A model generated the notes under the pieces. The model saw only the letters and a program-made list of their open reading frames with translations, had not been told where the DNA came from and searched no databases. From a virus (Duplodnaviria; Caudoviricetes), in the IMG/VR virus record IMGVR_UViG_3300036773_000072, positions 1 through 62,741 of that record: 62,741 nt of DNA; one strand, written 5' to 3'. The stretch's first letter is position 1. Every line of letters starts with the position of its first letter. The position numbers and the translations under genes were made by a program. Positions 5,170 through 62,741 of this stretch are shown here, piece by piece.

Positions 5170-5215
5170 CAGCCCGGCAATCCGCTGGGGTGAAAGATCG
5201 ACAACTGGAGGAAAC

Positions 5216-5602
5216 ATGACTGCTGGCACCGTGGAGTCAACGACCGGCGAGGTCTGGAGTGCCGCGTTCGGCACCGGGCCAGACCTGGAGATCACGAACA
5301 CGATGCGGCTCGTGGAGTGGCGGACGTGGCCGCAGGCGCGTGACGACATGATCAGGTTCGCTCGCGACTTCGCCGAGGCCGACGACAGCGACCTGAAGGA
5401 CGCGCAGGCGCACGCCGCGAGGAACCCCAACCAGTTCGTCGCGCACGAGCGGCCGTCCACCCACACGTACCCGACCACCATGGAGGCACTGGACGCGATC
5501 TTGGCGGCGAGCCCGCCGGAGATGGACACCGACTGTCACATGTGGATCGAGTCGTGGAAGGGCGAGCGGTTCCTGTTCTCGATCGAGAGGGACGCGCACT
5601 GA
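5216..5602 (+). CDS. Hypothetical protein
   Basis: GGAGG SD, ATG. Confidence 0.65.
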   Translation: MTAGTVESTTGEVWSAAFGTGPDLEITNTMRLVEWRTWPQARDDMIRFARDFAEADDSDLKDAQAHAARNPNQFVAHERPSTHTYPTTMEALDAILAASPPEMDTDCHMWIESWKGERFLFSIERDAH

Positions 5603-5880
5603 TGGTCGCCACGGCGGAACAGATCTGGGGTCGCAATTGCACGGGCGAGGACGGCTGCCCGACGTTCTGTCACAAGGCCGGCTGCAAGTCCTCGATCGGC
5701 ATGGCCGGTCACCTGACGCACAACACGGGTGACGACGGCGAGCTGCGGCACTCGTTCATTGATCAGGATGGGCTTTACAACATCGTCCTGCACCCTGGCC
5801 ACGACCACGAGATCACGCCGGAGAACGACGGCGGATGTAACGGCAAGCCGGACTGCCCGATGCACCCGCTGGAGGACTGA
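5602..5880 (+). CDS. Cys/His-rich hypothetical protein
   Basis: TGATG coupling; ends just before a terminator. Confidence 0.6.
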   Translation: MVATAEQIWGRNCTGEDGCPTFCHKAGCKSSIGMAGHLTHNTGDDGELRHSFIDQDGLYNIVLHPGHDHEITPENDGGCNGKPDCPMHPLED

Positions 5881-5893
5881 TCAGCAGCACAGG

Positions 5894-5933
5894 CGGCCGA
5901 CCCGGTCAAGCTCGGGTCGGCCGTTTCCTGTTT
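5894..5933 (+). terminator. Intrinsic terminator
   Basis: CGGCCGACCCG / CGGGTCGGCCG then TTTCCTGTTT. Confidence 0.8.
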
Positions 5934-5993
5934 CCGGATCGCGCGGGACCAGGAAACTCCCGTGCCTCGGACATCGTCCCACGAAACTGGCCA

Positions 5994-6023
5994 TTGTGCC
6001 CCGCGCGAGACAGGGGGTACTCT
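5994..6023 (+). promoter_or_regulatory. Repeated promoter/operator, copy 2
   Basis: TTGTGC-N18-TACTCT with CCCC…GGGGG. Confidence 0.8.
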
Positions 6024-6067
6024 TGGTCTTGCAGGGCCGGAGTGGCCCGCAGACGAGGGAGATCGAC

Positions 6068-6682
6068 ATGCTGACCTGGACCATCGCGTACCGGACCTCC
6101 ACCAACCGGGGCATCTTCCACCGCGTGGACGACCTGCACCTGAGCTGGGGCCAGTCGGTGCAGCTCGGCACGTACCTGGCCGGCGAGATGGGTACATCGG
6201 TCTGGACCGTTCCCACCCGGCAGGGCGAGCTGGACGGCAACGTCGCGGTCGAGGACATCGCGAACGTCATGGTTGACTCCGGCGCCCGTATCCGCATCGC
6301 CGAAGACGGCGCGCTGCCCTTCTCCACCGACCCGACCGGCGACCAGGCGGCCAGCACGGTCGCGGAAGTCGAGGACGGCGGTGCAGGCGGCTGGCGCTGG
6401 ATCACCTTCGTCAGCGGCTACCGGACCTGCGTCACGCTCAACGAGCTGCTCAGCCGAGTAGCCGAAGGCCAGTGGGCAATGACCGACAAGGCGCAGGACG
6501 CGGCGCGGCGCGTGGCTCGTGAGCTTTTCCGGCCGATCGACGCCGGTCAGCGCGGGCAGACCTGCGATGAGCACGGCTGGACCGGCTCGATGGCCGCCCA
6601 CTGCCCAGCCTGTGCCGAGGACATCCTGCCGGCCGAGTACGACGCACCCCGTGACTACGTCGGCACGTCGCTCGACTGGTGA
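6068..6682 (+). CDS. Hypothetical protein
   Basis: GAGGGAG SD; follows promoter copy 2. Confidence 0.7.
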   Translation: MLTWTIAYRTSTNRGIFHRVDDLHLSWGQSVQLGTYLAGEMGTSVWTVPTRQGELDGNVAVEDIANVMVDSGARIRIAEDGALPFSTDPTGDQAASTVAEVEDGGAGGWRWITFVSGYRTCVTLNELLSRVAEGQWAMTDKAQDAARRVARELFRPIDAGQRGQTCDEHGWTGSMAAHCPACAEDILPAEYDAPRDYVGTSLDW

Positions 6683-7107: not shown

Positions 7108-7677
7108 ATGGGCTCGGATGTGTTCGACCAGATCGCTGCCGATATGCCGGATGAGGAACTGCGCGAAAGTCTGTCACGCGCGCTGCGTGAGCAGCGTGAC
7201 GAGCACGACAAGTACATGCGACTGCTGGTCGGTCAGACCCGGCACGACGAACGTGTGTGGAGCGCTGCCCGACGTTCGGCGATCCAGGACGCGGGCACGG
7301 TGGGCGAGATGGTCGGTCATCAGCGGCTGAACGCCGTGACCCATACGGCGAGCGCGCTGGCGTACCGCGCGCAAAACCTGGGCGAGCGCCCCAAGAAGCA
7401 GGCGCTAATCGACCTGGTGGCGACTGCCGAACAGTTGACGCACGAGTTGAGGCTCAGCCGCGCGCTGACGGAACCTGCTGCTGTGACCGCCATCCGCGAG
7501 CGCGACGACGAGGTCAGCCGACTGCGTGCCTACGTGAGGGAGTTCGGCAAGGCGCTGCACGCCGGGCAGGGTACTGACGACTCATCCGGCTGCGAGTGCG
7601 CCGGTTGTCGCTTGATCGTTGACATGGACCTGGCGCCGATGTTCGGCCCGAGGCGCGAAGGGGCGTGGGCGAAGTGA
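7108..7677 (+). CDS. Hypothetical protein
   Basis: Co-oriented ORF. Confidence 0.6.
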   Translation: MGSDVFDQIAADMPDEELRESLSRALREQRDEHDKYMRLLVGQTRHDERVWSAARRSAIQDAGTVGEMVGHQRLNAVTHTASALAYRAQNLGERPKKQALIDLVATAEQLTHELRLSRALTEPAAVTAIRERDDEVSRLRAYVREFGKALHAGQGTDDSSGCECAGCRLIVDMDLAPMFGPRREGAWAK

Positions 7678-48239: not shown

Positions 48240-48388
48240 CAAAGCAGTCCCCCGGTCAGCTTCTGCGAGAGGCTGGGTCCGGGGGCTACGTCACCGACTG
48301 TACCCCGCCACGGCGCGGGGAGCAACGGCGAATCGCCACGCCGGCATAGCTGATCCACACCGCTGTGACCGGGGGTTATCATCCGCTC

Positions 48389-49039
48389 ATGAGCGAACAG
48401 GTGAAGATCCTCCGGACTCGGTGGGTAGCCATCGACTCGGTAGCCGCTCACCCTGAGAACGCTCGCAAATCGGACACCGACAGCATCCGCCGGTCCCTGG
48501 AGGACCACGCGCAGTACGCCCCGATCGTGGTGCACGAGGCCAGCCGGAACGTGATCGTGCACAACCACGTGTGGATGATCGCCAAGGAGCTGGGCCACAA
48601 GAAGATCTACGCCACGTTCGTGGACTGCTCGGACGAGAAGGCGCGAGCCGTGCTGGCCGTGGACAACCGGACATCCGATGTGGCCACCTACGACGAGACG
48701 GCGTTGATCGCCCTGCTGGAGAGTTTGGACGCGACCGACTCCCTGGGGCAGGCCGGCTACGACCTGGGGGATCTGGACGACCTGCGGGCGCGGCTGGAGG
48801 AAGTGGACGAGCTGGAGGTGCCGGGCGAGGTGTCCCGCGACCGGCCGGCGCGCACCCTGGACGAGCAGCACGCGGACTACGCGGAGTCCGGAGTGCGCTC
48901 GATCGTGGTCATGCTGAGCAGCGAGGCGTACGTCAAGCTGGTGGCGCATCTGGACCAGATCCAGGCGCATTTCCAGACCGCGAACTACTCGGACACCGTG
49001 GCCGCGCTGGCGGCCGACTACGTGAAGCAGGTGCTGTGA
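48389..49039 (+). CDS. ParB-like N-terminal domain protein (leaderless; -10 TATCAT at 48377)
   Basis: HPENARK…IRRSL…QYAPIVV…HNH…AVDNRTSD. Confidence 0.8.
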   Translation: MSEQVKILRTRWVAIDSVAAHPENARKSDTDSIRRSLEDHAQYAPIVVHEASRNVIVHNHVWMIAKELGHKKIYATFVDCSDEKARAVLAVDNRTSDVATYDETALIALLESLDATDSLGQAGYDLGDLDDLRARLEEVDELEVPGEVSRDRPARTLDEQHADYAESGVRSIVVMLSSEAYVKLVAHLDQIQAHFQTANYSDTVAALAADYVKQVL

Positions 49040-49881
49040 AGACGCTGGAGCTGCCGCGCCTGATCGAGCGCGCCGAGGCGCGGGCCGCGCTCGTCGGTTC
49101 GCGCGTGGCCAGCCTGACGCCCACGGTCACCGAGGACACCCTGATCGTGGACGCGGACAGCGGCGAGCCGGTGGCCTACTACGCGCCACTGGGGTCGGTC
49201 GACTGTCGGGACCTCCGCTGGGCCGTCCGGTCGATCAAGGATTTCAACGGCGTCAACCGGTCCGGCTCGGGCTATCGCACGTATTCCGCGACGTTCGGCA
49301 CGGCGCCACGCAAGCCTGTGTTCCAGCGCGAGGGCTGCGCCTCCACGGCGGTGAAGCGGGACTGGCCGGCGCAGCACGCGGTGCTCGAACGGTATGCGGA
49401 ACGATGCCAGGCCATGCTCGCGGACGTACTGCCGGAGATGGTGCGGCGGTCGCAGGACGAGTCGCAGGCGATCCTGCCGGACTGGCGACTCACGCCCGAG
49501 ACGCTGTGGACCTCCGGCGTGATCAACCGGACGGTGGCGATGCCGTACCACACGGATACCTCGAACTACGACGTGTGGTCAGCGATGCCGGTGGTGCGTC
49601 GCGGCGTGCGTGGCGGGCACCTGCACATCCCGGAGTACGGCGTGGTGCTGGAGTGCCGCGACTCGTGGTGCTCGTGGTTCCCCGGCCACCGGCTAGTGCA
49701 CGGCGTGACGCCGATGAGGGTGACCGATCCGGACGCCTATCGCTATTCCGTGGTGTTCTATGCCCTGCGGGGAATGAAGGACTGTGCCACGGCCGCCATG
49801 GAGACCGCCTACGCGCAGGGCAAGCGCACCGACCGGGAGCGCGCCTACGCGGCCGACCTCGCGAAGGGGCTGACGCAGTGA
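49036..49881 (+). CDS. TET/JBP-family 2OG-Fe(II) dioxygenase
   Basis: TFG..PR, WTSGVIN, YHTD (HxD), GGHL.IPEY, HGVTP, RYSVVFY. Confidence 0.88.
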   Translation: MKTLELPRLIERAEARAALVGSRVASLTPTVTEDTLIVDADSGEPVAYYAPLGSVDCRDLRWAVRSIKDFNGVNRSGSGYRTYSATFGTAPRKPVFQREGCASTAVKRDWPAQHAVLERYAERCQAMLADVLPEMVRRSQDESQAILPDWRLTPETLWTSGVINRTVAMPYHTDTSNYDVWSAMPVVRRGVRGGHLHIPEYGVVLECRDSWCSWFPGHRLVHGVTPMRVTDPDAYRYSVVFYALRGMKDCATAAMETAYAQGKRTDRERAYAADLAKGLTQ

Positions 49882-49883
49882 TC

Positions 49884-50747
49884 ATGCAGACCCCGATGGT
49901 GGAGACCTACCGGCGCTGGCACTGGATGCAGCGCGACACGCAGGACATCGACCCCGTGTATCCGGTGCTGCGCGAGCTGACCCGGAGCTGGACGCACGAG
50001 GAACGGGCGTGGCTGGTGCTGCTGCACGTCGGCTACTACCACCTGGGCTCCGCGTTGCGGGCGTTCGACGCATACCCGGTACCCGACCGGGGCCTGGTGA
50101 CGAAGGTCGGCCGGCTGCCGTGCGCCACGGAGCGGCGAGGGCACCGCAACCCGATCGCCCTGGCACGGCACTGGCTGAGCGTGCTGGACGCGATCGAGCA
50201 GTGGGGTAGCGCGTACGCACTGCTGTGTGCGCCGTCCTGGGCCGAACTGACCGCCCGACTCACCGGTATCCACGGCAACGGCCGCTGGGCCGCGTACAAG
50301 GCAGCGGAGATGGCGCAGAAGGTGCTGGACGTGCCGGTCACCGTGCCGGACGCGGCGCACGCGGACAGCTCCGGTCCACGCAAGGGCCTGTCGCTCGTCC
50401 TCGGTCCACAGCCTGTGGACAACGGTGTGGATACGATTCGTCAACTGGACACATTGACGACAGAACTGGCACACGATCTCCGCGAGACCGACCTGGGATA
50501 CGTCGAGACCAGCCTGTGCGACTTCCACAGCCTGGCCGAAGGCCGGTACTACCTCGGGCACGACATTGATCAGATGCTAGGCCAGCTTTACGAGGTGCCC
50601 ACGATCTCGACTTCACCGACACTGCTGGCCCGCCGGCACAGCCTGCCGGACGCCTACCTGGGCGAGGTTCACGGCTGGCGGGGGATCTGGTCCGACCGGC
50701 GACAGGTGTTCGCACGCAGCGGCTACATCATGGAGAGGTACGCATGA
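49884..50747 (+). CDS. Amino-acid:DNA transferase (aGPT-Pplase2-like, HhH fold)
   Basis: DIDPVY, TERRGHR, GNGRWAAYK..E, SGPRKGL, ETSLCDFHS…GRYYLGHDID. Confidence 0.8.
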   Translation: MQTPMVETYRRWHWMQRDTQDIDPVYPVLRELTRSWTHEERAWLVLLHVGYYHLGSALRAFDAYPVPDRGLVTKVGRLPCATERRGHRNPIALARHWLSVLDAIEQWGSAYALLCAPSWAELTARLTGIHGNGRWAAYKAAEMAQKVLDVPVTVPDAAHADSSGPRKGLSLVLGPQPVDNGVDTIRQLDTLTTELAHDLRETDLGYVETSLCDFHSLAEGRYYLGHDIDQMLGQLYEVPTISTSPTLLARRHSLPDAYLGEVHGWRGIWSDRRQVFARSGYIMERYA

Positions 50748-51541
50748 TCATCGTGGTGGGTAACGGCATCGTAGGGTCCTGCCTGTCGCGGCACCTGGGC
50801 GACCGAGGGATACGACACCTGGTGGTGTCCGCCAGTGCGCCGGACTCGATGGCGGCGGCGGCACTGCTGCGCCGTGGCTACCACCACGGCGACGAGCTGG
50901 CCCTGTTCGACCGGTCGCTGGAGCTGTTCAAGACGTGGGGCGTGGACGTGCAGTCCGGCGGCTGGGTCACCAACTACCGCAAGCCGGGCAAGCGTCCGCA
51001 CCAGGAAGCCGACTGGCACATCCTGGACCCGTGTACCCCGCTGGTGTCGGCCGACGTGCAGGCGTTCGCGGTCCGCCACGAACAGGGCGTGCTGGTGGGC
51101 GATCCGACCGACGCGGAGCTGATCAAGGCTGACCGGGTGTTCTGGGCGACCGGCGCCGTAGACGCGACCGGTATTACGCACGGCGTGACGTGGACGCACC
51201 CGGACCCCGCCGTGCTGACCTCGCCCAGCCGGCTGCGGCTGCACCACTACGCGCCGTACAAGACGATCGTGGCCGCCCGTGTCGGTGGCGCCGCTCGCCT
51301 GGGCAGCTCGTCAGCGAAGTCGGCTACCACGGCGTTGACGCAAGCCGAGCGGATGTTGGCCACCGCAGCCGAGGTCGGCATGATCCGCAGTCTTCAGGGC
51401 TGGAGGGCGGTGACCGGCCTGCGGTGCAAGGGCACGAACGCGACCCCGTCCGGCATCCACTTCGGCATCGTCGGGTTCCACCGGACCGGCTACGCGATCG
51501 CTCCGGCGGCCACTGAGCGGTTCGTGGAGCGTGCGCTGTGA
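50744..51541 (+). CDS. FAD-dependent oxidoreductase (DAO/glycine-oxidase-like)
   Basis: IIVVGNGIVG, SMAAAALL, WATGA, GLR, GFHRTGYAIAP. Confidence 0.85.
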   Translation: MIIVVGNGIVGSCLSRHLGDRGIRHLVVSASAPDSMAAAALLRRGYHHGDELALFDRSLELFKTWGVDVQSGGWVTNYRKPGKRPHQEADWHILDPCTPLVSADVQAFAVRHEQGVLVGDPTDAELIKADRVFWATGAVDATGITHGVTWTHPDPAVLTSPSRLRLHHYAPYKTIVAARVGGAARLGSSSAKSATTALTQAERMLATAAEVGMIRSLQGWRAVTGLRCKGTNATPSGIHFGIVGFHRTGYAIAPAATERFVERAL

Positions 51542-52098
51542 CCAGGTTGATCTACCTCGTGGGCGAGCCGGGCGTGGGCAAGTCGTGGCTGTTCACCGAG
51601 TTGACGAAGGCGTTCGAGCGGACCGCGCTGCCGACCCCGGCACCGCGTCGGGAGTTCCTGCTGAGCCCGGACCGCAGCTCGATCGTCGGCGTGGAGCTGG
51701 GCGCGCGAGCCGGCAAGCACCATGCCGGCTATCCCGGCACCGACGCGCTGCCGATGAACGCGGTCATCGCTGCTGAGCAGTACCTGGTCTCAGGGACCGC
51801 GCAGCGCGAGACCCCGCTGATCCTGGCCGAAGGCGCGCGGCTGGGCGTGCGCCGGTTCCTGGACGCGGCGCTCACGGCGCGCATCGACACTCACGTGGTG
51901 CTCGTGACCGACCCGGAGCGGGCCGCCAAGCAGCGGGCCGACCGAGGATCGGCGCAGAACCCAAGCTGGGTGCGTGGCGCGACCACGCGAGCTGTCCGGT
52001 TCTACGCCTACGCGGTGCAGGCCGGCGTGAGCACGCACGCTTACGCGATGCGGCCGGCAACCGAAGTGCTGGCCGGTCTGGCAGATCTGATCCGGTAG
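51538..52098 (+). CDS. P-loop nucleotide kinase (candidate 5hmU-DNA kinase)
   Basis: LVGEPGVGKS, GTDALPM, EGARL, RGSAQNPSW.RG..T. Confidence 0.8.
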   Translation: MTRLIYLVGEPGVGKSWLFTELTKAFERTALPTPAPRREFLLSPDRSSIVGVELGARAGKHHAGYPGTDALPMNAVIAAEQYLVSGTAQRETPLILAEGARLGVRRFLDAALTARIDTHVVLVTDPERAAKQRADRGSAQNPSWVRGATTRAVRFYAYAVQAGVSTHAYAMRPATEVLAGLADLIR

Positions 52099-52626: not shown

Positions 52627-54389
52627 CGGCCGCGCTGGACGCGGAAGTCCGGGCACGGCTTGATCAACTCAATGCCGCAGAACGGCGGCTGGCCGAGGTT
52701 CGGCTGGAGCGCATCCTGAAGCGGCGTAACGCCGTCCAAGAGTTTCGCTCGCCCGGCCACCTGGCGAAGTTCGCCAACCCGGAAGTCCGGCAGACGGACA
52801 TGATGGTGGCCCTGGACAAGGCGGTGCTGGCGGCCGAGGCCGGTATGCAGCGACGCTGGATCATCTCCACGCCACCGCAGGAGGGCAAGACGCTGCGGTT
52901 GGGCACGGCCGCGCCACTGTGGTTCCTGCTGCGCGATCCGTCCCGGCGCATCGTGGTGGCCAGTTACGAGCAGAACCTGGCCAGCCGCAGCACGCTGGCC
53001 GTGCGCCAGCTCGTGGAGACCTACGGCGGTGGGTACAAGGGCGAGAACCGGCACGGCGCCGAAGATCACTTCGGGCTGGTGCTGGACCCGGACAAGGCGC
53101 AGCAGACCAACTGGCAGTTCGCGGACGTGCCCGGCCGCGTGAATGGCGGCATGACGGCGGTGGGTGTCGGCTCCGCGTTCACCGGCCGATCAGCGGACAT
53201 CCTGGTCATTGACGACGCGGTGAAGGACGCCAAGGCGGCCGACTCCCCGCAGCAGCGCAAGGTCATCTGGGACTGGTTCCGGGCGGTGGCTACGACCCGT
53301 CTGGCCGGCAACGCGATCATCATCGTGATCGGTACCCGCTGGCACGAGGATGACCTGATCGGCCGGCTGATGCGGCGAGACGACGCGGAGCCGACGCAGT
53401 TGTGGTCCCGGCTGGTGATCCGGGCACAGGCCGAGAGTGACGATCCGCTGGGCCGCACTGCGGGCGAATACCTGGTCAGCGCCCGCAAGGAGGGACGCGA
53501 CTGGTACCAGATCCGGCGTGACGTGGGCGAGCGCTGGTGGGCCGCGCTGTACCAGGGTCGGCCGGCGCCCGAGGCCGGTGGCGTGTTCAAGCAGGAGTGG
53601 TTCGACCGGCACCGCCGGACCACCGCGCCGGAGCTGACCACCACGAAGGTGTTCGTGGACCCGGCCGACAACGAAGGTGACGGCGACGAGGCCGGCGTGA
53701 TGTGTGCGGGCAAGGGCGCGGACGAGCGCTACTACCTGCTGGCCGACCGGTCGGAGACGATGACCAGCCAACGCTGGCTGCGGGTGGCCTTCCTGGTCGC
53801 GCTGGAGTTCGGCGCCGAGGAAGTAGCGTACGAGCAGTCGCTGTCCGGGCTGAAGCGCACCGCCCGGCAGGTGTGGAAGGACATCGCCCGCGAGGCGCGC
53901 AAGCTGCACGAGCTGTGGAAGGCGCTGCCCCGTCAGCCGTGGCCACGGCACGCCGACCCGGCCGTGCTGGGCGACGCGGTGGACGCGCTGGCTCGCGATG
54001 ACGCGGACGCGACCGAGAAGGCCGTGCTGGAGGCCAACCTGGTCGAGCTGTGGCCCTGGGTGCCCAAGGCGCTGGACTTCCCCGTCTCGGGCATCCCGAT
54101 CCGGGCGTTTCCGGCGAAGGGTAGCAAGACGTTCCGCGCCAAGATCATCGCACCGCTGTTCGAGGGCGGCCACGTCAGCTACGTCGGGTTCTTTCCGGAG
54201 CTGGAGCACCAGCAGATCTCGTGGCAGGAGTCGCAGAAGTCGCCCGACCGGATGGACACGGCGGTGCACGCCTTCACCGAGCTGTCCCGCATCGGTGGTG
54301 CCACGCGGGTGCAGCCAGCACAGGGTCGCATCCCCACCCGTACGTCTCGGCTCCAGATCGCTCGCCAGGCCGGCGGACGGCGGTGGTGA
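52623..54389 (+). CDS. terL: Terminase large subunit
   Basis: PPQEGKT, VIDDAVKD, GTRWHEDDL.G, ALYQGRP, VDPA, SPDRMD. Confidence 0.93.
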   Translation: MTAALDAEVRARLDQLNAAERRLAEVRLERILKRRNAVQEFRSPGHLAKFANPEVRQTDMMVALDKAVLAAEAGMQRRWIISTPPQEGKTLRLGTAAPLWFLLRDPSRRIVVASYEQNLASRSTLAVRQLVETYGGGYKGENRHGAEDHFGLVLDPDKAQQTNWQFADVPGRVNGGMTAVGVGSAFTGRSADILVIDDAVKDAKAADSPQQRKVIWDWFRAVATTRLAGNAIIIVIGTRWHEDDLIGRLMRRDDAEPTQLWSRLVIRAQAESDDPLGRTAGEYLVSARKEGRDWYQIRRDVGERWWAALYQGRPAPEAGGVFKQEWFDRHRRTTAPELTTTKVFVDPADNEGDGDEAGVMCAGKGADERYYLLADRSETMTSQRWLRVAFLVALEFGAEEVAYEQSLSGLKRTARQVWKDIAREARKLHELWKALPRQPWPRHADPAVLGDAVDALARDDADATEKAVLEANLVELWPWVPKALDFPVSGIPIRAFPAKGSKTFRAKIIAPLFEGGHVSYVGFFPELEHQQISWQESQKSPDRMDTAVHAFTELSRIGGATRVQPAQGRIPTRTSRLQIARQAGGRRW

Positions 54390-54390
54390 C

Positions 54391-54867
54391 GTGGAGATCC
54401 GACCGCAGTCCGAGACGCATCGTCTCAACGGCTCCCTGCCGGGTCCGGCGGCTGTGCGCAATCAGGTCCGTGCGGTCACCCTGCGGGTCGAGTCGCTGCC
54501 GGGCGGGCTGCTGCGGGTGTCTACTCCCACCACGCCCGGTTGGGCCGCTACAGCACGCACACAGGACGAGTTCATGCGGGCCATCCGGGACGCCTTCACT
54601 GAGGCACAGGTGGCCGCGTACGCGGCCTGGCGCAACCACGAGTACGACCTGGCCGAGACCGTGATGCGGGACGACCCGGACCCGCTGGTGGCTGCTGCCC
54701 CGTCCCGCCGGACGCGGGTGGCGGTCCGGCGGGACCAGTACGACCCGTCCGCCTGGTCGGTCTGTGCGGACGGCCGCTGGCGCTCGCCTTCCGGGCGGCT
54801 GTACCGGCCGGATTCCACGATGGTGTCGAGGGTTCGCGCTGCTCGGATCAGGGTCGGGCTCGATTGA
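54391..54867 (+). CDS. Hypothetical protein
   Basis: DGRWRSPSGRLY motif. Confidence 0.6.
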   Translation: MEIRPQSETHRLNGSLPGPAAVRNQVRAVTLRVESLPGGLLRVSTPTTPGWAATARTQDEFMRAIRDAFTEAQVAAYAAWRNHEYDLAETVMRDDPDPLVAAAPSRRTRVAVRRDQYDPSAWSVCADGRWRSPSGRLYRPDSTMVSRVRAARIRVGLD

Positions 54868-54870
54868 CGC

Positions 54871-54900
54871 TTGTGCCCCGTTCGAACAGGGGGGTACAGT
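54871..54900 (+). promoter_or_regulatory. Repeated promoter/operator, copy 7
   Basis: TTGTGC-N18-TACAGT. Confidence 0.8.
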
Positions 54901-54939
54901 CGCCTTGACCGACTGAATCCGCAACGAGGGGAACACCTG

Positions 54940-55407
54940 ATGGGTCAGCAGGAAGCGCGGCCGGAATCCATCACCGACCTGCCGAACTACGTCCAGACCG
55001 AACAACTGGCCTTCATTCGGCTCACGCAGCCGATGCTGCTGGCCAACGTCCTTCCGATCATTGACGCGCTGCTGCACAACGCGGCGCACGCCTACGGCGA
55101 GGACATGCTGGTCATCGACTCGTCCGGCGGCCAGATCGAACTGGGCCGCAGGCTGGACACGGGCGAGCTGGCCAAGATCCTGGCCGAGACGCAGGAGAAC
55201 TGGGACCGCGAGAACGATCAGCGGGAGCTGGCCGCCGGACGAGTCGAGCTGGTCGTGGGCGATGCGTTCGACGTGTCCGGCTACCAGCACACCTGCAAGC
55301 GCCAGGTCGGCTCCGAGATCTGTGCCCTGAACCGCCGGCACTACGGCAAATGTCTCGCCGTACGAGACGGCCATGTGGTCGAAACTCGCCCCGGACTCTG
55401 GCAGTAG
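54940..55407 (+). CDS. Hypothetical protein
   Basis: GAGGGG SD after promoter copy 7. Confidence 0.65.
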   Translation: MGQQEARPESITDLPNYVQTEQLAFIRLTQPMLLANVLPIIDALLHNAAHAYGEDMLVIDSSGGQIELGRRLDTGELAKILAETQENWDRENDQRELAAGRVELVVGDAFDVSGYQHTCKRQVGSEICALNRRHYGKCLAVRDGHVVETRPGLWQ

Positions 55408-55415
55408 CTCGAACC

Positions 55416-55450
55416 TCAACCCGTGCGTCACTACCCGACGCACGGGTTGA
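55416..55450 (+). terminator. Hairpin
   Basis: TCAACCCGTGCGTC / GACGCACGGGTTGA. Confidence 0.7.
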
Positions 55451-55490
55451 TTCGTGAATTGCGTCTCTGATTCGTGAACAGGAGGACACC

Positions 55491-55949
55491 GTGCCCGACA
55501 TGAACATCAGCCTGCCGGATATCAAGCTGCCGGATATGGGCAATTGCGACGTGTGCAATAACGAACCGGCGGTAGGCGTGGCCTGCGTGCCGGGAATGCC
55601 GGTGAGCGTCGCCTACGGCGCAGCCTGTCTCGCCGCCAACGCGCATCCGTACGGATTGCTGGTGGCCAACACCGCGCTGATCGGCAACTACGCGGACAGC
55701 ACGGAATGGTGGCAGGAAATGATCGACGCCACGCTGGCCCACCTCGGCAAGCCGCGCGAGCAGTTCGACGCGGACGTGGCCGAGTCCAGTGCCGAGTTCG
55801 AGCGCGAGATAGCGCTGGCGGACGAGAAGCTGGAGACCATGGCGGCCGACCGCAGTCCGCTGGAGTTCCACCCGGCCGGCTGCATCTGTCCCGGCTGCGG
55901 TGGAGTCACCACGCAGTCGCGCTGGACAGGCGGTGAGCCTCGTGGGTGA
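55491..55949 (+). CDS. Cys-containing hypothetical protein
   Basis: AGGAGG SD; CDVC…SVAYG..CL. Confidence 0.65.
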   Translation: MPDMNISLPDIKLPDMGNCDVCNNEPAVGVACVPGMPVSVAYGAACLAANAHPYGLLVANTALIGNYADSTEWWQEMIDATLAHLGKPREQFDADVAESSAEFEREIALADEKLETMAADRSPLEFHPAGCICPGCGGVTTQSRWTGGEPRG

Positions 55950-56602
55950 TCTGCCGAAGCTCAAGCGAGACTGGATCGGCCGGAAGGTCCGAACCAAGAA
56001 CGTGCTGCGCAACGGAAACTCGATTATCCCGGCTGGCACCGAGCTGATCGTGGCGGACAACCACTCTGGACTGCGCCTGCGGTCCGAACCGTGCGAGCAC
56101 TGCGGCGTCTCGATCTACATCACGCGGGTGCCCGAGTCGTCCGTAACCCTGCTCCCGCTGGAGGTCGAGACCCATGGATGAGCTGCCCGGAATCCTGGAG
56201 CGCCTGGCGAACCTGGCCGACAACCTGGAGCTGAAGGCGGCTGCGCCGCTGGAGGACGCCCAACTGACGATGCAGCACACGCTGTACGAGCTGGACGCTC
56301 TGACCGGCCGCGCGCCGGTCAGAGGTGTGCGGCCATGGTGGCTGTGATGGACGAGGCGACTCAGCAGGCCATCCTGCGGATAGCGGACCTGATCCAGGAC
56401 AAGCTGGAGGACGAGAACACCGACCGCCAGTACATCGCCGAAGACGCCCTGGCCCGTCTGGACATGCTGGCCGACCCGACCGGCGTGCCGCGCGGCGGCA
56501 TCGTGTGGGGAGTGTCGACATGAGGTACCTCATCGTGCTGGCGCCGCTCGCGCTCGTGGCACCGATGATCATCAGCCTTCTGCTCGAACACAGGAGGCCA
56601 CG

Positions 56603-57217
56603 ATGATGGCACCCGGCCACATGGCCCACGGCGCGCTGTTCGGCTTGGTACTGGCACCGCTGGCACCACACCCGGCCGGGCTGCTGGTGTCCACTGCGGT
56701 GCTCGTCGGTACCGGCGTGATCGGCGCCTTGGTACCGGACCTGGACCACCCGAAGTCGCGCCTGACGCACGCGCTCGGTCCCGTCACGTGGGTCCTGAGC
56801 TTCTGTCTGGTCCGGCTGTCCAAGGCCGTCTACATGGCGACCAGGACCAAGAAGGACTCGCCCGGTACCAACGGGCACCGGGCGATCACGCACACGCCCG
56901 TGTTCGCGCTGGCGGTCGGTACCGGCACGTTCCTGGTACTGGTACCGACCGGCCTGCACGCCTACGCCCTGCTGGTGGCACTGGGCCTGACGATGGGCTG
57001 TTTCGCCCACCTGTGTGGCGACTCGTGCACGAACAGCGGCGTGCCGTGGTTCTGGCCACTGGTGCGCGACGGCAAGCGCTGGGGCCACTACGGCATCCCG
57101 AAGGCACTGCGGTTCGAGACCGGTGGCGCCGTGGGCGAGCCGTTGATGACGCTGGTGTCGGTCGCGGCGTGTGTCGCCGTGCCGCTCGCCTACGGCTACC
57201 TGGGCTGGGGGGTGTGA
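56603..57217 (+). CDS. Membrane-bound metal-dependent hydrolase (YdjM/DUF457-like)
   Basis: GH…PDLDHPKS…GHRAITHT…HLCGDSCT.SGVP. Confidence 0.85.
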   Translation: MMAPGHMAHGALFGLVLAPLAPHPAGLLVSTAVLVGTGVIGALVPDLDHPKSRLTHALGPVTWVLSFCLVRLSKAVYMATRTKKDSPGTNGHRAITHTPVFALAVGTGTFLVLVPTGLHAYALLVALGLTMGCFAHLCGDSCTNSGVPWFWPLVRDGKRWGHYGIPKALRFETGGAVGEPLMTLVSVAACVAVPLAYGYLGWGV

Positions 57218-58163
57218 CGTGGCGGACGAGGTGTTCACGACATGGCGGATCACGGTTGACCTGCACACGGATGTGCTGGAGGCCGATGCACGGCGCGTGT
57301 TGGACGCGATCAAGCGGATGGACGAGGTAGCTGGCGCTGACCTGGAGGATTTCGATGGATGAGCAAGCGAACCTGGCGCCGGACGCCAAGCAGCCGGGCT
57401 ACGTGGCCGAAATCGACTTGACGCCTTACGGCGCCTCGTGGGGCTCGCAGCCGAGGCATCACGGGGAGATCGACTACGTGTTTCCCGGCCGGGCGGTGCT
57501 CGTACTGCCCGGCCGGGAGTGGCTGGCCGAGCCCGAGGCGTGCGAGTGGGATGGGCCGGGCGAGTGGGTGTTGGACGACAAGGTGCTGGTCTGCCCCTGC
57601 TGTGGTCTGGACTGCACGTGAGCCGCCGGCAACGCGCCCGCGTCCGCCGACAGGCGGCCACCTACCGGCGGTGTGAGCTGTGCGGCAAGCGCGTCTACCC
57701 GGACGCCATCGGCGCCAAAGTGGACGGCGCCTACTGGAGCCAGCGCGTATACCCCTGTCCAGCCGGCCAGGGCTTCCATCTCACGAGCCTGGAGGTGTGT
57801 TGTGCTGGGTGAGCAGCGAGTAGTCGCCGAAGCGACCGTGCAGCAGGGTCCGCTGACGTGGATGTACTGGCCGAACCTGGAGGGCCGGCAGTTCCTGATC
57901 GACAAGATCCGGGCGGTGTACCGCACCACCGAGGACGGCCGCTGGGTGATCCGGCACCTGTGCCTGTCCGGCCGAGCGCTGCTGGTGGACGGCACGATAG
58001 GGCGCACGGAGCGGTTCCGGTTCTATGAGCCCGAGCCGCGCCCGCGTGCCAGCCACGTGCCGGACAGCCCGTGGATCGACGCGCCGGAGTGGGCTCGTCG
58101 CTGGGCTGCCGAGCTGTGCCCGCAGACTGTGGTGATCAAATCGACTGTGTGAGCGCTGAGACC

Positions 58164-58211
58164 ACCGCGAGACGCCCCGGACATTGATGCAGGTCCGGGG
58201 CGTCTCGCGGT
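58164..58211. terminator. Long hairpin between convergent operons
   Basis: 19-bp perfect arms ACCGCGAGACGCCCCGGAC / GTCCGGGGCGTCTCGCGGT. Confidence 0.8.
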
Positions 58212-58396
58212 CTCGACCGGTACAGAGACTGGATCTTGAACAATCTTACCGTGAGTAGAACGATCTCACTCTGCATACCCGCAGGTCAGCAGCGTGATCG
58301 AGCCTTCTGAACCGGTGAGGATCACGGGTCGCGCGCACGCCTGCGCGCCTAACGCGCGGGCGAACATGAGACCCGCGTTGCGACTGTCCGTGCACG

Positions 58397-60280
58397 TCAC
58401 GCGCTCACGTCCACGTCCGCAGCCGCGCCCGTGTGCCACACGCCCGAGCGCGAGTGCGCGCGACCTTCGCCCGCGAGCCGGTTGAGCCGCCGGAACACGG
58501 TGGCCCGCGACAGGCCGGTGCGTTCGGCCAGCTCATCGGCCTTGCCGGGCTCGATGTCCAGCGCGGCCATGACCTCGTCGGGCTCGGCATCCTCGTCGGG
58601 CATGTCGATGATGATGCCGCCGTGGCCCATGAGGGCTGCCCAGGCCGTGGGTTCTGCGGTGGGTCGGCCGGCGGCCACGCACGCCTCGATGTGGGCTCGC
58701 CGGTCACGCACGGTCACGAAGTAACCCTTGGCGATGTTGGGCGTGGAGTGCGCCTCGTCCCGCAGCAGGTGCTGACCCGTCTTCAGGCCGGCACTGTTCC
58801 AGCCGTAGCGCACCAGGTCCCCCCACAGCACGCGGGAGGCGTGCGCGTCCAGCGCGAGGCCGACCGTGGACTTGAGCTGGGCCTGGAGTTCCTTGCTGCC
58901 CGTGTCCGCCTTGCTGCCGTTCTGGCACAGCAGGATGAACCGCACCCCGGCCTTGCGGCCACGCTTGCCGCAGCGACCCACCAGGGCCAGGTGCTTCTGG
59001 CCTTCCTTGCCTCGTCCCTCAGCCTCGGCAACGAAGTCCGGATACTCGTCCACGATCACGGTCAGCCACGGCTCGCTGGGACTGGGCATGAAGGCGTCCG
59101 GGGCGTCGTCGCTGGACGCCTTGTCCAGGCCCAAGCGCCGTTCCCGGTCCTCGATGAACGCCATGACCCGCTCGAACAGCACCACCGTGGACTCATAGTC
59201 CGTGGCCACCGGCATACACATGACCGGCTCCCACACACGCAGGGTGGCGCCGGACGCGAGGTCACCGGCGGCCAACATGCAGTCGTCGCAGGCCGCGAGG
59301 TAGACCAGCAGAGACTCCAGCCAGATCGACTTGCCGGAGCCGTTGGCGCCCACCACGAGGGTGTGCTGGAGCATGTAGATCTCTTCCATCGCGTCCGCGT
59401 GCAGACCCATCGAGAACCGCAGGTCATTGGCCCGCAGGGAGACCGTGCCTGGCGCGGGCATCGGGTGCAGGATCTTGCCCTTCCACGGGTCCTTCGGCAG
59501 GAACCGCAGGCTGACTCGCCGGGCGTTGGACTCGTCGGTCAGCAGGTAGATCGAGGACAGCCGCAGCGAGTAGAAGCTGGCCAGCGTGTCCATGCGTGGC
59601 GCGAGCTGTGCGGCCGTCATGCCTTCGGCCAGCCGGATCGTGAGGATGGACTGGCCGCGCGAGCCGCGCGCCTCCACCACGCGCGAGCCGTGCAGCTCGC
59701 GGATCGGGCCACGTTCCTTGTCCGCGAGGATGCGCCAGCGCCGGGCGTACCGGTCCGCCCGGCCGGCTACCCGGATGCGGCGGTGGTACCACCAGGACCC
59801 GCCGAACACCAGGAGACCAAGCTGCCACCACAGGGCCGTCGTGGTACTGGGGCCGGCACCGACCCGCAGTGCCAGCCAGCCACCGAGTGCCGCGAGGAAC
59901 AGGGCCAGATAGGTCCGTTCCGGTACCCGGTCCAGCACGCCCTTGCGGCCGGCATCCACCGAGTCCGGTACCAACGCGAGTACCAAGCGGGACCAGGGAC
60001 CGGACAGCCGTGGTCCCAGTACCGCGAGTACCAAGCCGGCGGCCGGGAGTACCAGGGCCGCCCACCAGGTCCACGACGCGGTACCACGCCAGACCAGGGC
60101 CAGGATCTCGGTACCGGTGGCGAGGTACAGCGGGGTGAGTACCCGGCGCCAGCGCCACGCCAGATGGCTGATGCCCTTGCCGATGGGCCGGATGACGAAC
60201 CGGAACAGGCCGTAAAGGAACAGGCCGGTCAAGATCCCGTCGCCGAACAGGTCAACCAGCGGGTGCTTCTTCTTTGCCAT
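58397..60280 (-). CDS. TraB-like FtsK/SpoIIIE DNA translocase
   Basis: N-terminal TMs; Walker A GANGSGKS; Walker B VIVDE; GRKAG; C-terminal wHTH (ELAERTGLSRATVFRRL). Confidence 0.85.
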   Translation of the reverse strand: MAKKKHPLVDLFGDGILTGLFLYGLFRFVIRPIGKGISHLAWRWRRVLTPLYLATGTEILALVWRGTASWTWWAALVLPAAGLVLAVLGPRLSGPWSRLVLALVPDSVDAGRKGVLDRVPERTYLALFLAALGGWLALRVGAGPSTTTALWWQLGLLVFGGSWWYHRRIRVAGRADRYARRWRILADKERGPIRELHGSRVVEARGSRGQSILTIRLAEGMTAAQLAPRMDTLASFYSLRLSSIYLLTDESNARRVSLRFLPKDPWKGKILHPMPAPGTVSLRANDLRFSMGLHADAMEEIYMLQHTLVVGANGSGKSIWLESLLVYLAACDDCMLAAGDLASGATLRVWEPVMCMPVATDYESTVVLFERVMAFIEDRERRLGLDKASSDDAPDAFMPSPSEPWLTVIVDEYPDFVAEAEGRGKEGQKHLALVGRCGKRGRKAGVRFILLCQNGSKADTGSKELQAQLKSTVGLALDAHASRVLWGDLVRYGWNSAGLKTGQHLLRDEAHSTPNIAKGYFVTVRDRRAHIEACVAAGRPTAEPTAWAALMGHGGIIIDMPDEDAEPDEVMAALDIEPGKADELAERTGLSRATVFRRLNRLAGEGRAHSRSGVWHTGAAADVDVSA

Positions 60281-60281
60281 C

Positions 60282-61316
60282 TCAGGCACCTTCCTTGACG
60301 AGTCGGGCGATGCGGCCGGCACGCGCGGTGCCGAGGTTGTAGGCGGCTGCGATCGCCCTGCGGGTGGTGTGACCGTCGTGCCGGGCTCGGGCCACCAGGT
60401 CGTCATCGCTGCCGGCCTTGGCGGTCACGACGTGCTCGGACCGGCGGATGGGCGACACCTTGGCGGGACTGGCGGCCGACTGATCCGGGTGCACCTTGGC
60501 CGGCGCCTCGTCCCGGATCGGCCGCAGGACGATGGTCCGTTCGGACAGCGTCTCCGGCGGCACGGGCCGATGAGCGGTGACTGACTCGGGCTCGGTGACG
60601 GGCGAGATCACGGGCAGGTCGTCAGCGGCCGTGGGTCGCGGCGCTTCGGGCTCGTCCTGGTGCGTTGTAGGTCGGTCGGGCTCGACTTCCCCACGCACAT
60701 CCGGCAACGGTTCGGTCACGATCGGCTCGGACGGCCGGACGGGTTCGGGCGGTGCGACGTTGGGCGGTGCCACCAGGCCGACCAGGTCAGTGACGGGCAC
60801 GGCGACCAGGGCGGTCCGGAACGCGGACCAGGTGCCCCGCCGGTCAACGGTCCAGCGCAGCGCCAGCAGCCCGAGCCGCAGGCGGAACGCGCGCTTGCCG
60901 TGCCGGATCTCCCATTCGGCCCGCAGGTCGGACAACACCACGTCGAACACCAGGACGGCCGCGAAGGGCAGGGCTGCGCCTACCCACTGCGCCAGGCTGT
61001 TGCCCTGGAAATGCCAGTTGATCCAGCCGGAGACGGCGGTGAAGGCGTACATCAGGACCCGGCCGCGCAGCACGGCCCGGCCGTAGATGGACGAGCGGTA
61101 GACCAGCACGGAGCAGGCGAACGCGGAGCCGTCGAACGAGCCGGGCACCAACCACGCCGTCACGTCCGTGTAGCCGTGCATCGGGTCCAGGGCGAACCCG
61201 TGCAGGCCGACGAACGACGCTGCCCAGCCGGCCACGGCCGCGAGCGCCACGAAGCCGAGCACGAGGCGGGCCAGGCGGATGCCGGACAGCCGGGGCAGAC
61301 GCCGTTCGTCGCTCAT
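60282..61316 (-). CDS. DUF2637-like (Spd-type) membrane protein with C-terminal HTH
   Basis: ASFVGL…AWLVPGSFDG…S..IN..; four TMs; Pro-rich linker; RRAIAAAYNLGTARA.RI. Confidence 0.7.
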   Translation of the reverse strand: MSDERRLPRLSGIRLARLVLGFVALAAVAGWAASFVGLHGFALDPMHGYTDVTAWLVPGSFDGSAFACSVLVYRSSIYGRAVLRGRVLMYAFTAVSGWINWHFQGNSLAQWVGAALPFAAVLVFDVVLSDLRAEWEIRHGKRAFRLRLGLLALRWTVDRRGTWSAFRTALVAVPVTDLVGLVAPPNVAPPEPVRPSEPIVTEPLPDVRGEVEPDRPTTHQDEPEAPRPTAADDLPVISPVTEPESVTAHRPVPPETLSERTIVLRPIRDEAPAKVHPDQSAASPAKVSPIRRSEHVVTAKAGSDDDLVARARHDGHTTRRAIAAAYNLGTARAGRIARLVKEGA

Positions 61317-61495
61317 CGGTAGTCCTTCGGGTTGATGATCTCGAATCCCCTCAGCCGCTTTCTGCGTTCGAGGGGAATACGGATGAATGTCCAGATGACG
61401 TAGCCCACGAAGGTACCGACCGAGACCGCCCACCAATCCCAGGTGATCGACACGGCGAGTACCACGAGTGCGGCCAGTACCACGGTGGTCCTCAT
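61313..61495 (-). CDS. Small two-TM protein
   Basis: MRTTVVLAALVVLAV…; overlaps the DUF2637 start. Confidence 0.55.
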   Translation of the reverse strand: MRTTVVLAALVVLAVSITWDWWAVSVGTFVGYVIWTFIRIPLERRKRLRGFEIINPKDYR

Positions 61496-61570
61496 TGCAG
61501 CATTGTCGCATGTTCCCCCACGTAAAACGGGGTACTGAGTACCACCCGAAGATCCGCCGTAGATAAAGGG

Positions 61571-61600
61571 TTGTGCCCCGTGGCATCGGGGGGGTACATT
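61571..61600 (+). promoter_or_regulatory. Repeated promoter/operator, copy 8
   Basis: TTGTGC-N18-TACATT upstream of the DUF932 gene. Confidence 0.8.
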
Positions 61601-61647
61601 CGGTCTCACCGGGGCAGATTTGGCCCCCGAAAGCAGGAGGACACGAG

Positions 61648-62741
61648 ATGTCGAACATCACCGCCGCAGAAGCCATCGAGGGCACCCGCAACGCGAACAT
61701 GGAAGATCTGGTCGCGATCCTGCGGACGCAGCAGGCCCTGAAGGTGGACGTGGTTGCTCCGGCCGAGACCCTGCGTGTCAAGGACGGCAGTTTCGTTCTG
61801 TCCGGCCTGGACCCGGAGATCACGGACGAGGGCGTGACCGACCCCAACGGTTCCTACCGTCCCACGGCTGCGGCCGATGGTGACGTGGCCGAGAAGCTGG
61901 GCATCGGTGGGCGGTACATCCGCAAGCTGCGGTCGGAGCGCGTCGACCTGTACGACCTCAACGTCAACGGCTTGCTACGGGGCAAGAGCCGGCGCCTGGT
62001 GTCGGGGGAGACCGAGGTCATCCACCCGGCAGACAGCCGCTCGTTCCTCCTGCGCCTGTTCCGGGGCGAGGACGGCAACGAGGGCGTGCTGCGGGCGATG
62101 CTGTCCGACCGCTACGGCCGGGTTGACCACCTGGATCTGATCATGGCGGTGCTGTCCGGCATCCGCGACGCAGGTGTGGACGTGCAGATTCGCGAGTGCG
62201 ACCTGACCGAGTCCTACATGCGTGTGCGCGCGTTCTCGCCCCAGGTGAGCGCGCTCGCACCGACACTGCTGGGCAACTACCGCAACCCGTTCGCCAACCC
62301 GGAGATGGAGAAGGCTCGGCAGGAGATCTCCCGTTGGACGCGCATCGCGGACAACGAGGGCATGGGCTACGACAACGGCGAACTGGCCAACCAGGTCGTG
62401 TTCGCGGGATTCGAGTTCAGCAACTCCGAGACCGGCTCGGGCAGTGTGCGGTTCGCACCGCGCATGTTGGTGCGGGTGTGCAAGAACGGTCTGACCTTGC
62501 CGGCGTTCGCCGTCAAGCAGACGCACCTCGGTGCCCGGATGGATGAGGGCTGGAATTTCGAGGTTCAGGGCAAGGCGCTGGAGGTCATCACGGCGCAGGC
62601 CAAGCAGAAGGTAACCGAGTGGCTGTCGCCAGACTTCCTGGCCAGTCGCGTCAACGAGATCGAGGCCAAGGCTGGTGCCGAGGTCTCCGAACCGGCCAAG
62701 ACGATGAAGGTCGTTGCCAAGCGGTTCGAGCTGAGCGAGAC
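61648..62741 (+). CDS. DUF932-family protein, 5' part (wraps through the join and stops at 371)
   Basis: AGGAGG then ATG 61648; open to window end; LRAMLSDRY, FSNSETGSGS, RVCKNGL and HLGARMDEG motifs. Confidence 0.8.
   Translation, partial: MSNITAAEAIEGTRNANMEDLVAILRTQQALKVDVVAPAETLRVKDGSFVLSGLDPEITDEGVTDPNGSYRPTAAADGDVAEKLGIGGRYIRKLRSERVDLYDLNVNGLLRGKSRRLVSGETEVIHPADSRSFLLRLFRGEDGNEGVLRAMLSDRYGRVDHLDLIMAVLSGIRDAGVDVQIRECDLTESYMRVRAFSPQVSALAPTLLGNYRNPFANPEMEKARQEISRWTRIADNEGMGYDNGELANQVVFAGFEFSNSETGSGSVRFAPRMLVRVCKNGLTLPAFAVKQTHLGARMDEGWNFEVQGKALEVITAQAKQKVTEWLSPDFLASRVNEIEAKAGAEVSEPAKTMKVVAKRFELSE
62540..62741. repeat. Terminal direct repeat, copy 2
   Basis: Same sequence as 1-202, one mismatch; lies inside a CDS that reads across the join. 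Confidence 0.95.

Follow-up and report, generated by a model that had tools for sequence, protein, structure and literature searches.

The 62,741-base window analyzed here, virus record IMGVR_UViG_3300036773_000072 (the phage hereafter called W), carries a minus-strand cassette encoding a TraB/FtsK-like DNA translocase and a DUF2637 membrane protein, and dense clusters of a short DNA word with the core GGTAC are written into and around this cassette. Our results support the view that these clusters are a DNA-level signal overlaid on tolerant coding sequence through codon choice, and they show that such a word array is a family-wide feature of the cassette, with the word itself differing by lineage. 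From comparison of the sequences we tentatively favor a reading in which the arrays would be a DNA-level binding platform for the C-terminal domain of the DUF2637 protein, similar in kind to a clt locus or a centromere and not to a polar guide such as the FtsK-orienting polar sequences (KOPS). The clusters and the genes that carry them are located as follows (aa, amino acids).

56524 to 56946, plus strand: array A, with 8 RGTACY sites and 14 GGTAC/GTACC 5-mers; seven of the sites are in the first 115 codons of ydjM and one is in a small membrane open reading frame (ORF) just upstream
59746 to 60143, minus strand: array B, with 11 RGTACY sites, 13 GTAC and 18 GGTAC/GTACC 5-mers, in traB codons about 46-178, the N-terminal membrane domain
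61412 to 61543: array C, with 5 RGTACY sites, three in the gene for a 60-aa membrane protein (61412, 61458 and 61476) and two in the palindrome upstream
61531 to 61543, no strand assigned: the palindrome GGTACT-G-AGTACC, which stands in the region of the divergent promoter, upstream of the cassette
56603 to 57217, plus strand: gene for a ydjM-family inner-membrane protein of 204 aa (Pfam PF04307, E 4.3e-26; phrog_20744)
58397 to 60280, minus strand: gene for the TraB/FtsK-like DNA translocase, 627 aa (PF01580, 26.4 bits against a cut-off of 24; phrog_1358)
60282 to 61316, minus strand: gene for the DUF2637 membrane protein, 344 aa (PF10935, E 2.2e-36, 125.6 bits against a cut-off of 22.8)
61313 to 61495, minus strand: gene for the 60-aa single-pass membrane protein, read from the sequence and called by GC content at third codon positions (GC3)

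RGTACY occurs 63 times in the window, compared to 21.9 +/- 4.6 times in 100 dinucleotide shuffles (maximum 34), and 24 of the 63 sites fall in the three clusters, which together make up 955 bases or 1.5% of the genome. A first-pass annotation of this DNA had reported clusters of 8, 11 and 5 copies, 13 GTAC in the middle cluster and none of the hexamers in the ATPase-coding part of traB; when the exact positions were recounted in the window, the three counts and their places were confirmed (the 11 sites of the middle cluster at 59785-60143), the 13 GTAC were found at 59747-60139, and there were zero RGTACY sites between 56946 and 59785. That annotation had named loss of the enrichment under a codon-preserving null as one outcome that would refute it, and the enrichment in arrays A and B survived it, none of 2000 resamplings reaching the observed counts. 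When synonymous codons were drawn from genome usage (2000 resamplings), 0.99, 1.34 and 2.14 sites were expected in A, B and C, where 8, 11 and 5 were observed, and the observed counts were reached in 0, 0 and 1 resamplings. Shuffling of codons within each gene (2000 shuffles) gave expectations of 1.93, 1.84 and 2.55, reached in 0, 0 and 5 cases. Cluster C is weaker under the null because two of its sites, those in the palindrome, are non-coding and were kept fixed; the cluster lies outside the DUF2637 gene (start at 61316), in which RGTACY does not occur. The highest count per 400 bp in the null genomes was 5-6, compared to 11 observed. Outside the clusters the hexamer is unenriched, with 39 sites observed and a null total of 48.5 that includes about 4.5 in the clusters.

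The manner in which the word is written suggests a DNA-level signal. As the first-pass annotation had noted, the sites use three codon phases and the rare codon GTA: 13 cluster sites read xxG-GTA-Cxx, 6 read GGT-ACY and one reads AGT-ACC, and GTA makes up 76 of 1663 Val codons genome-wide (4.6%). The genome has 22 GTA codons in the context G-GTA-C, 13 of which fall within the clusters. In array B, seven sites use GTA in this way, and the seven GTA codons in traB codons 47-119 each stand between a G and a C. When the clusters of W and four relatives were pooled, GTAC was preceded by G in 54 of 62 cases, by A in 7 and never by C, and was followed by C or T in 61; CGTAC is common elsewhere in the W genome. 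What is kept is therefore (Y)GGTAC(Y) and not a codon.

The first-pass annotation had also described the asymmetric copies as mostly facing the 58.2-kb junction and had taken this as a possible directional signal. Each copy it listed was correct (GGTACT at 56647 and 56935; AGTACC at 59979, 60018, 60027, 60048, 60138, 61458, 61476 and 61538; exceptions at 59843 and 61531), but the directional interpretation was not borne out. In the coding sense the asymmetric copies read GGTACT, two in ydjM, five in traB and two in the small gene, with one coding exception, AGT-ACC; the left/right flip thus follows the strand of the carrying genes, and the preference for GGTACT arises from the rarity of A-ending codons and from the spelling of Val-Leu as G-GTA-CTN. 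In addition, the asymmetric words GGTCC/GGACC are enriched 2-4 fold in both orientations in the relatives, although the locus L020 is biased 23:8. In this the arrays differ from strand-polar guides of the type of KOPS or the SpoIIIE recognition sequences (SRS).

We compared the cassette with its relatives from viral, genome and metagenome scans, which comprised 20 viral loci with TraB proteins of 29-61% identity, a near-identical metagenome contig (L017, TraB 97%), a partial contig (L018) and a chromosomal locus of Amycolatopsis (L040). A protein database held 84 TraB relatives at E<=1e-10, many of them on contigs of ~60 kb. No close relative was found among the isolated phages of the phage collection, in which DUF2637 had no match and TraB matched FtsK-like genes of Streptomyces phages at 22-24% identity; a search of genome contigs with a three-sequence profile gave no match. 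In all three whole genomes (W, G001 and G002), the strongest local k-mer cluster of the entire genome sits in this cassette, its top word being GGTAC in W and G002 and GGACC/GGTCC in G001. The G001 cluster holds 54 GGWCC in 1.4 kb, compared to about 3.5 per kb elsewhere, and its word occupies all three codon phases as well as the non-membrane linker of the DUF2637 protein.

For the family as a whole, a codon-aware null was used in which amino acids were kept and codons were redrawn from the pooled usage of the ATPase parts of TraB, over a zone consisting of the first 215 traB codons and the last 300 DUF2637 codons. Nineteen rows (W and 18 loci) were included, among them the near-duplicates L035/L036, L029/L034 and L026/L027; a truncated locus (L033) and a locus of 50% GC and 29% identity (L038) were left out. 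A strong array in the TraB N-terminus and DUF2637 was found in 16 of the 19 rows (observed vs expected counts; z, standard score):

GGTAC: W, 18 vs 4.8; L019, 25 vs 4.8; L028, 35 vs 6.7; z 8-15
TGGCACY (GGCAC): L020, with TGCCA 24 vs 3.5; z 17
GGWCC: L021-L025, with GGACC 52 vs 16.1 in L025; z 4.6-10.7
GGWCC plus GGTAC: L029-L031 and L034-L037
CGCCA/CACCAGG, a weaker and different word: L032; z 6.7
No array: L026 and L027; maximum z 3.5 and 2.8

Because L026 and L027 stay unenriched under it, the null is not simply too lenient. Together with the codon nulls in W, the arrays at the same place in relatives support the earlier suggestion of a DNA-level signal within tolerant transmembrane-coding sequence of the TraB/DUF2637 module. 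In L003/L019, ten sites are found where array B lies, some in the codons used by W and others in different codons, so that both the position and the number of sites seem to be kept between W and L003; L003 also has two GGTAC words in the upstream region matching the palindrome region of W. CACCAGG is overrepresented in the zone of L040 (15 copies, compared to 3 in the rest), as it is in the viral locus L032. This locus (contig of Amycolatopsis sp. lyj-346, 4700-6650) is a chromosomal DUF2637-TraB pair beside housekeeping genes. In L037, TraB's C-terminal portion (about 5000-5434) reads as frameshifted and Arg/Gly-rich on a very long tree branch, probably a sequencing or assembly artifact.

In all loci the arrays begin about 1.3 kb upstream of the traB start, reach about 650 bases into traB and end before the ATPase domain. 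They hold 18-74 sites per zone, in both orientations, over 0.4-2 kb; their spacing is irregular with many copies abutting, and no helical phasing of the sites was found. The words are preferentially conserved, a higher share of them than of the zone's other 5-mers being intact in 12 of 13 comparisons between relatives (for example, 44% vs 13% for W against L019, 56% vs 32% for L030 against L031, and 88% vs 73% for W against L017), the exception being one direction of L035/L036, where both were 63%. The difference was nominally significant in 9 of the 13 (Fisher p<0.05), although these p-values are rough because overlapping 5-mers are not independent. The array in ydjM belongs to the W lineage: GGTAC occurs there 12 times vs 1.3 expected under the codon-aware null (z 8.4), and L017 has RGTACY sites at the place matching array A. 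Among 17 ydjM homologues, only that of W was significant for GGTAC or GGWCC, and GGWCC near ydjM in G002 was not significant (8 vs 5.4 under the codon null). A modest enrichment of GGGACCC-like words was seen in ydjM of the array-less L026/L027 (CGGGA 12 vs 3.5; GACCC 13 vs 4.4).

The first-pass annotation had proposed two readers of the word, the TraB winged helix-turn-helix (wHTH) and a helix-turn-helix (HTH) in the DUF2637 protein, and these fared differently. The recognition helix of the TraB wHTH is nearly constant across GGTAC, GGCAC, GGWCC and array-less phages, and W, a GGTAC phage like G002, has a helix nearer to that of the GGWCC phage G001 than to that of G002, so that co-variation does not support TraB as the reader; in pSVH1, helix alpha-3 of TraB sets word specificity, according to the available part of PMC3583192, citing Vogelmann 2011. 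The DUF2637 proposal held up better, in that the C-terminal domain of this protein (three helices at pLDDT, the predicted local distance difference test, of 91-93 in an AlphaFold2 model) changes with the word class, though the classes also follow the TraB tree. The sequence classes of its last helix match the word classes:

GGTAC: G-T-x-R-A-[GT]-x-I-A-R
GGCAC: G-S-S-R-A-T-K-I-A-N
GGWCC, with or without GGTAC: G-S-x-R-A-L-[RK]-[LI]
No array: G-A-P-R-W
CACCAGG (L032 and the Amycolatopsis locus L040): D-A-S-E-x-x-V-R-Q-V-L

The Amycolatopsis pair of L040 thus has an L032-type domain together with an L032-type word. Such co-variation is what a reader would be expected to show, and it suggests that the DUF2637 C-terminal domain is a likelier reader than TraB. 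For the conserved TraB helix, a better candidate target than the array may lie at the other end of the gene:

58153 to 58396, no strand assigned: non-coding element at the convergent junction, directly 3' of the traB stop, conserved across the family including the array-less phages

This element contains TGAGAC/GTCTCA words (pooled over the family, TCTCA 38 vs 2.8 and GAGAC 42 vs 9.7), ends in a terminator-like hairpin at about 58160-58215 and has no Rfam match. Being conserved, it would fit the conserved TraB helix better, and its place is the usual one for plasmid clt loci. In the Streptomyces rep plasmid NZ_CP108178.1 (L039), the DUF2637 gene lies two genes after an FtsK/SpoIIIE gene, and its Arg-Glu-rich linker (7150-7664) holds 9-10 CGTGAGC/GCTCACG words, written through the CGT codon; as this cluster lies in an Arg-Glu repeat, it was set aside as evidence.

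In the reading that we tentatively favor, the three clusters are taken as one cis-acting feature, an irregularly spaced array of a short word with the core GGTAC, usually YGGTACY, whose enrichment in both orientations is as expected for a word in duplex DNA. The word is written by means of synonymous codons (GTA, GGT, ACT and TTG) into the membrane-segment coding sequence of the minus-strand cassette and, in the W lineage, also into ydjM, and the array would be a platform on which a DNA-binding protein of the cassette itself could land at many sites. The most likely such protein would be the membrane-anchored DUF2637 protein, of a type whose gene takes the spd position next to traB in a Streptomyces plasmid, acting through its C-terminal three-helix (HTH-like) domain. 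Binding could tether the array region of the phage DNA to the membrane next to the TraB pore, where the array might act as a clt- or centromere-like hand-over site for the pumping of double-stranded DNA, possibly allowing transfer between hyphal compartments in a mycelial host. Several observations weigh against this proposal. The GGTAC and GGCAC rows form a single clade of the TraB tree (support 88/90), and because the word classes follow this tree, the co-variation rests on about four changes and is confounded with other differences between clades, hosts included. Phages with GGWCC plus GGTAC share their domain type with phages that have GGWCC only, L026 and L027 have the cassette and no array, the DUF2637 gene of W carries no copy of the word, and the lineage-specific array in ydjM is not accounted for by a platform. 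The fold matches of the DUF2637 domain are weak (Foldseek E above 1; best Z 4.2), many of them being HTH or winged-helix domains, including the FtsK gamma domain, and the protein has no Pfam HTH match. Five bases are also little information for a specific HTH. Moreover, SpdB2 of pSVH1 binds DNA non-specifically in the available text of PMC4447253, and the DUF2637 protein is likened to SpdB2 by gene position only. A bolder version, which we regard as doubtful, would have a membrane-anchored, SpdB2-like DUF2637 protein read a 5-base word written 20-70 times in its own operon as a centromere-like handle, so that TraB could move the whole phage genome between hyphal compartments and infection would spread without virions, with word and reading helix co-evolving into a private address for each lineage.

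Other explanations of the arrays were weighed against a DUF2637 platform. The array sits on traB itself and TraB carries a C-terminal wHTH, so the words might instead be TraB recognition sequences, in effect a large clt, read by this winged helix as in Streptomyces plasmids to load or orient the pump, the main proposal of the first-pass annotation; known clt loci are likewise lineage-specific short repeats adjoining tra genes, as described in the available sections of PMC3583192 and PMC4447253. We consider this unlikely, since a recognition helix that is nearly the same across word classes and array-less phages contrasts with the specificity set by helix alpha-3 in pSVH1, since 3-9 direct repeats in 50-175 bp make up a known clt locus and the arrays have 18-74 copies in both orientations over 0.4-2 kb, and since the conserved element directly after the traB stop suits a conserved helix better. 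A low probability is also given to a regulatory field of operators or roadblocks, at which the DUF2637 domain or some other protein of the phage, acting as a repressor, would silence or meter toxic membrane and translocase genes, as in the kil-kor control of traB. While the GGTACT-G-AGTACC palindrome stands in the promoter region, the words run through the 5' half of the operon, a second array occupies another membrane-protein gene (ydjM), and unregulated traB is toxic in plasmids according to the available text of PMC4447253, up to 74 sites over 2 kb are far beyond the needs of an operator, no gene for a repressor was found, two relatives that have the same genes lack an array, and the end of the arrays before the ATPase domain in all loci is not required by a roadblock. 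A regulatory role fits the promoter palindrome at 61531-61543 and is compatible with tethering, so the two could coexist.

It seems quite improbable, though clade and host are confounded, that the word is set by the host, as the target of a methyltransferase, restriction enzyme or nucleoid protein, clustered for methylation-dependent control or titration. GGTACC, GGWCC/CGGWCCG and CCWGG are classic type II palindromes, and the word class follows the phage clade, hence probably the host. Small actinobacterial nucleoid proteins can also read a word of 4-6 bases (Gbn, GATC; available part of PMC9239103). However, the L020 word TGGCACY is non-palindromic and strand-biased (23:8), GGTACT is as frequent as GGTACC within arrays, the rest of the genome shows neither avoidance nor enrichment of the word, and dense restriction sites would be a liability. 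No methyltransferase or nuclease family was found beside the W arrays, and no methyltransferase family among the 95 W proteins searched with PHROGs or the 76+11 searched with Pfam. Judged from the phage side, the arrays do not resemble a target of type II restriction-modification. Even less can be said for a signal in the mRNA, by which self-complementary words would form structure or rare codons would pause ribosomes during membrane insertion, and we regard it as very unlikely. The arrays do lie mostly in membrane-protein coding sequence, W uses the rare codons GTA, GGT, ACT and TTG, GGUACY is self-complementary with G-U pairs, and the L028 array folds more stably than synonymous shuffles (z -2.6). 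The other three arrays gave z of -1.0, -0.8 and -1.1, no better than ATPase controls (-1.5 to +0.9), and with one of four arrays folding clearly better than synonymous shuffles, RNA structure was set aside as not clearly selected. In addition, the GGWCC arrays are written in common codons and continue into non-membrane linker sequence; in array B the GTA codons are all G/C-flanked and the phases GGT-ACC and TGG-TAC-C contribute, so that the word is kept and not the codon; and two relatives have the same membrane proteins without arrays. Practically no weight is left for the absence of any function, that is, for clusters that arise by chance or follow from the amino-acid composition or a local codon bias: membrane segments commonly contain Leu-Val-Leu and Gly-Thr, and the weakest class (L032/L040, CCTGGYG) uses the commonest codons, but 0 of 2000 codon-preserving resamplings reach the counts of A or B, z is 8-17 in relatives where the same null gives at most 3.5 in L026/L027, and word copies are preferentially conserved.

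The window is the whole assembly of this virus record, a single contig, and is the complete ~62.7-kb genome of a soil actinophage. Although listed as linear, the record is circular or terminally redundant, because its first ~200 bases (1-201) recur at 62541-62741 with at least one mismatch and the gene at 61648-62739 runs on into the record start. GC is flat across the window at ~68%. A GC3-based gene call gave 106 ORFs, all except a few on the plus strand, and PHROGs and Pfam identified structural proteins of the siphovirus type (portal, major head protein, major tail protein, tape measure and TerL) in addition to Erf, SSB, a DnaB-like helicase, an endolysin and WhiB. The sole multi-gene unit on the minus strand is the cassette of 60-aa membrane protein, DUF2637 protein and translocase, whose genes abut or overlap: the stop of the 60-aa gene overlaps the DUF2637 start, and the ATG of traB is one base past the DUF2637 stop. 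The 60-aa protein has no family match in PHROGs or Pfam. The Pfam DUF2637 match begins at residue 18 of the 344-aa form, and the C-terminal three-helix domain is encoded at about 60288-60407. From its domains, the protein at 58397-60280 is classed as an FtsK/SpoIIIE/TraB translocase, in which an ATPase domain is combined with a membrane domain at the N-terminus and a winged helix at the C-terminus (about 58433-58600); it matches several wHTH families (HTH_IclR at 23.7 bits against a cut-off of 22), its P-loop G-x-x-G-S-G-K-S is invariant across 39 sequences, and it is 22-28% identical to FtsK-like genes of Streptomyces plasmids and phages. A divergent gene upstream of the cassette was found only in W and L020 among the loci, a hit in L019 being spurious.

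Between ydjM and the convergent junction (57355-57812) lie two small Cys-rich ORFs of 88 and 64 aa with CxxC-type pairs and no family match. No tRNA or Rfam RNA was found within 54000-62741; the genome has a single tRNA at 412-483 (ARAGORN), labeled tRNA-Asp with the unusual anticodon ATC. Five genes at 48365-52098 are typical of thymidine hypermodification, encoding a ParB-like protein, a weak Tet/JBP dioxygenase, an ADDT amino-acid:DNA transferase (PF18724), a DAO-type oxidoreductase and a P-loop nucleotide kinase 3 (PF18751); the PHROGs labels for two of them differ, reading 'queuine tRNA-ribosyltransferase' and 'terminase small subunit'. This hypermodification cassette was rejected as the source of the GTAC signal, since G002 has a GGTAC array and no ADDT homologue in a search that finds the W copy.

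Streptomyces-type conjugation moves double-stranded DNA by means of a single FtsK-like pump and a small cis site, and the array may bear on how the spread (Spd) proteins meet the DNA. A whole family of ~60-kb actinophages, which are uncultivated, and at least one chromosomal element of Amycolatopsis carry the pump, the DUF2637 protein and a large, coding-embedded, lineage-specific array. Should the array prove to be the address of this DUF2637 domain, a Spd-type protein would have a sequence-specific DNA partner, and the idea that phages spread through mycelium by this machinery would gain concrete support. The case is also an example of the strong effect that a DNA signal can have on the choice of codons in genes for membrane proteins.

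Among known systems, KOPS and SRS are 8-bp, asymmetric, strand-polar words found chromosome-wide that guide FtsK and SpoIIIE and are read by a winged helix. The phage arrays share with them short words and a pump of the FtsK family, whereas the phage words are enriched in both orientations and confined to one cassette. The likeness to clt is closer, as both consist of short lineage-specific words that adjoin or overlap an FtsK-like TraB gene and can lie partly in coding sequence. The loci described in the available sections of PMC3583192 and PMC4447253 are those of pIJ101, with three repeats of 5 bp in about 54 bp; pJV1, with nine of 9 bp; pWTY27, with four of 7 bp in 175 bp, of which 16 bp fall inside traA; and pSVH1, with repeats of 8 bp that TraB reads; that is, 3-9 direct repeats of 5-9 bp in 50-175 bp on the 3' side of tra, read by helix alpha-3. 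The arrays, in contrast, consist of a 5-6 bp word that occurs 18-74 times, in both orientations and over 0.4-2 kb, on the 5' side of traB and in neighboring genes, the element here is a phage, and the TraB helix is nearly constant across the words. The arrays thus adjoin a tra gene and are clt-like in kind, but are not a member of the clt group because both their size and arrangement and the expected co-variation with the TraB helix differ. A site for a spread-module protein written in the coding sequence of its own module has a precedent in SpdA (pIJ101 and others, with SpdA2), which binds 12-bp sps palindromes inside spdA, its own gene, that synonymous changes can remove, according to the available part of PMC4170104; there, 1-3 copies of a 12-bp palindrome are conserved between plasmids, whereas the phage word has 5-6 bp, dozens of copies and varies by lineage. 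In the available text of PMC4447253, SpdB2 is described as a membrane protein of four helices and an interaction partner of TraB, and its homologues in actinophages are suggested to help spread phage DNA. Our literature search, limited to one paper collection, found no description of such arrays. Clusters of GATC at oriC, bound by SeqA, and at the P1 pac site are each read by one protein and, like the phage arrays, derive their function from the density of a 4-6 bp word at irregular spacing. A single tri-helical actinobacterial domain can read a word of this size, as with Gbn of Streptomyces (GATC; PMC9239103, available part). In these GATC clusters the word is fixed by a methylase or a host protein, whereas in the phage family it changes from phage to phage together with a phage-encoded domain.

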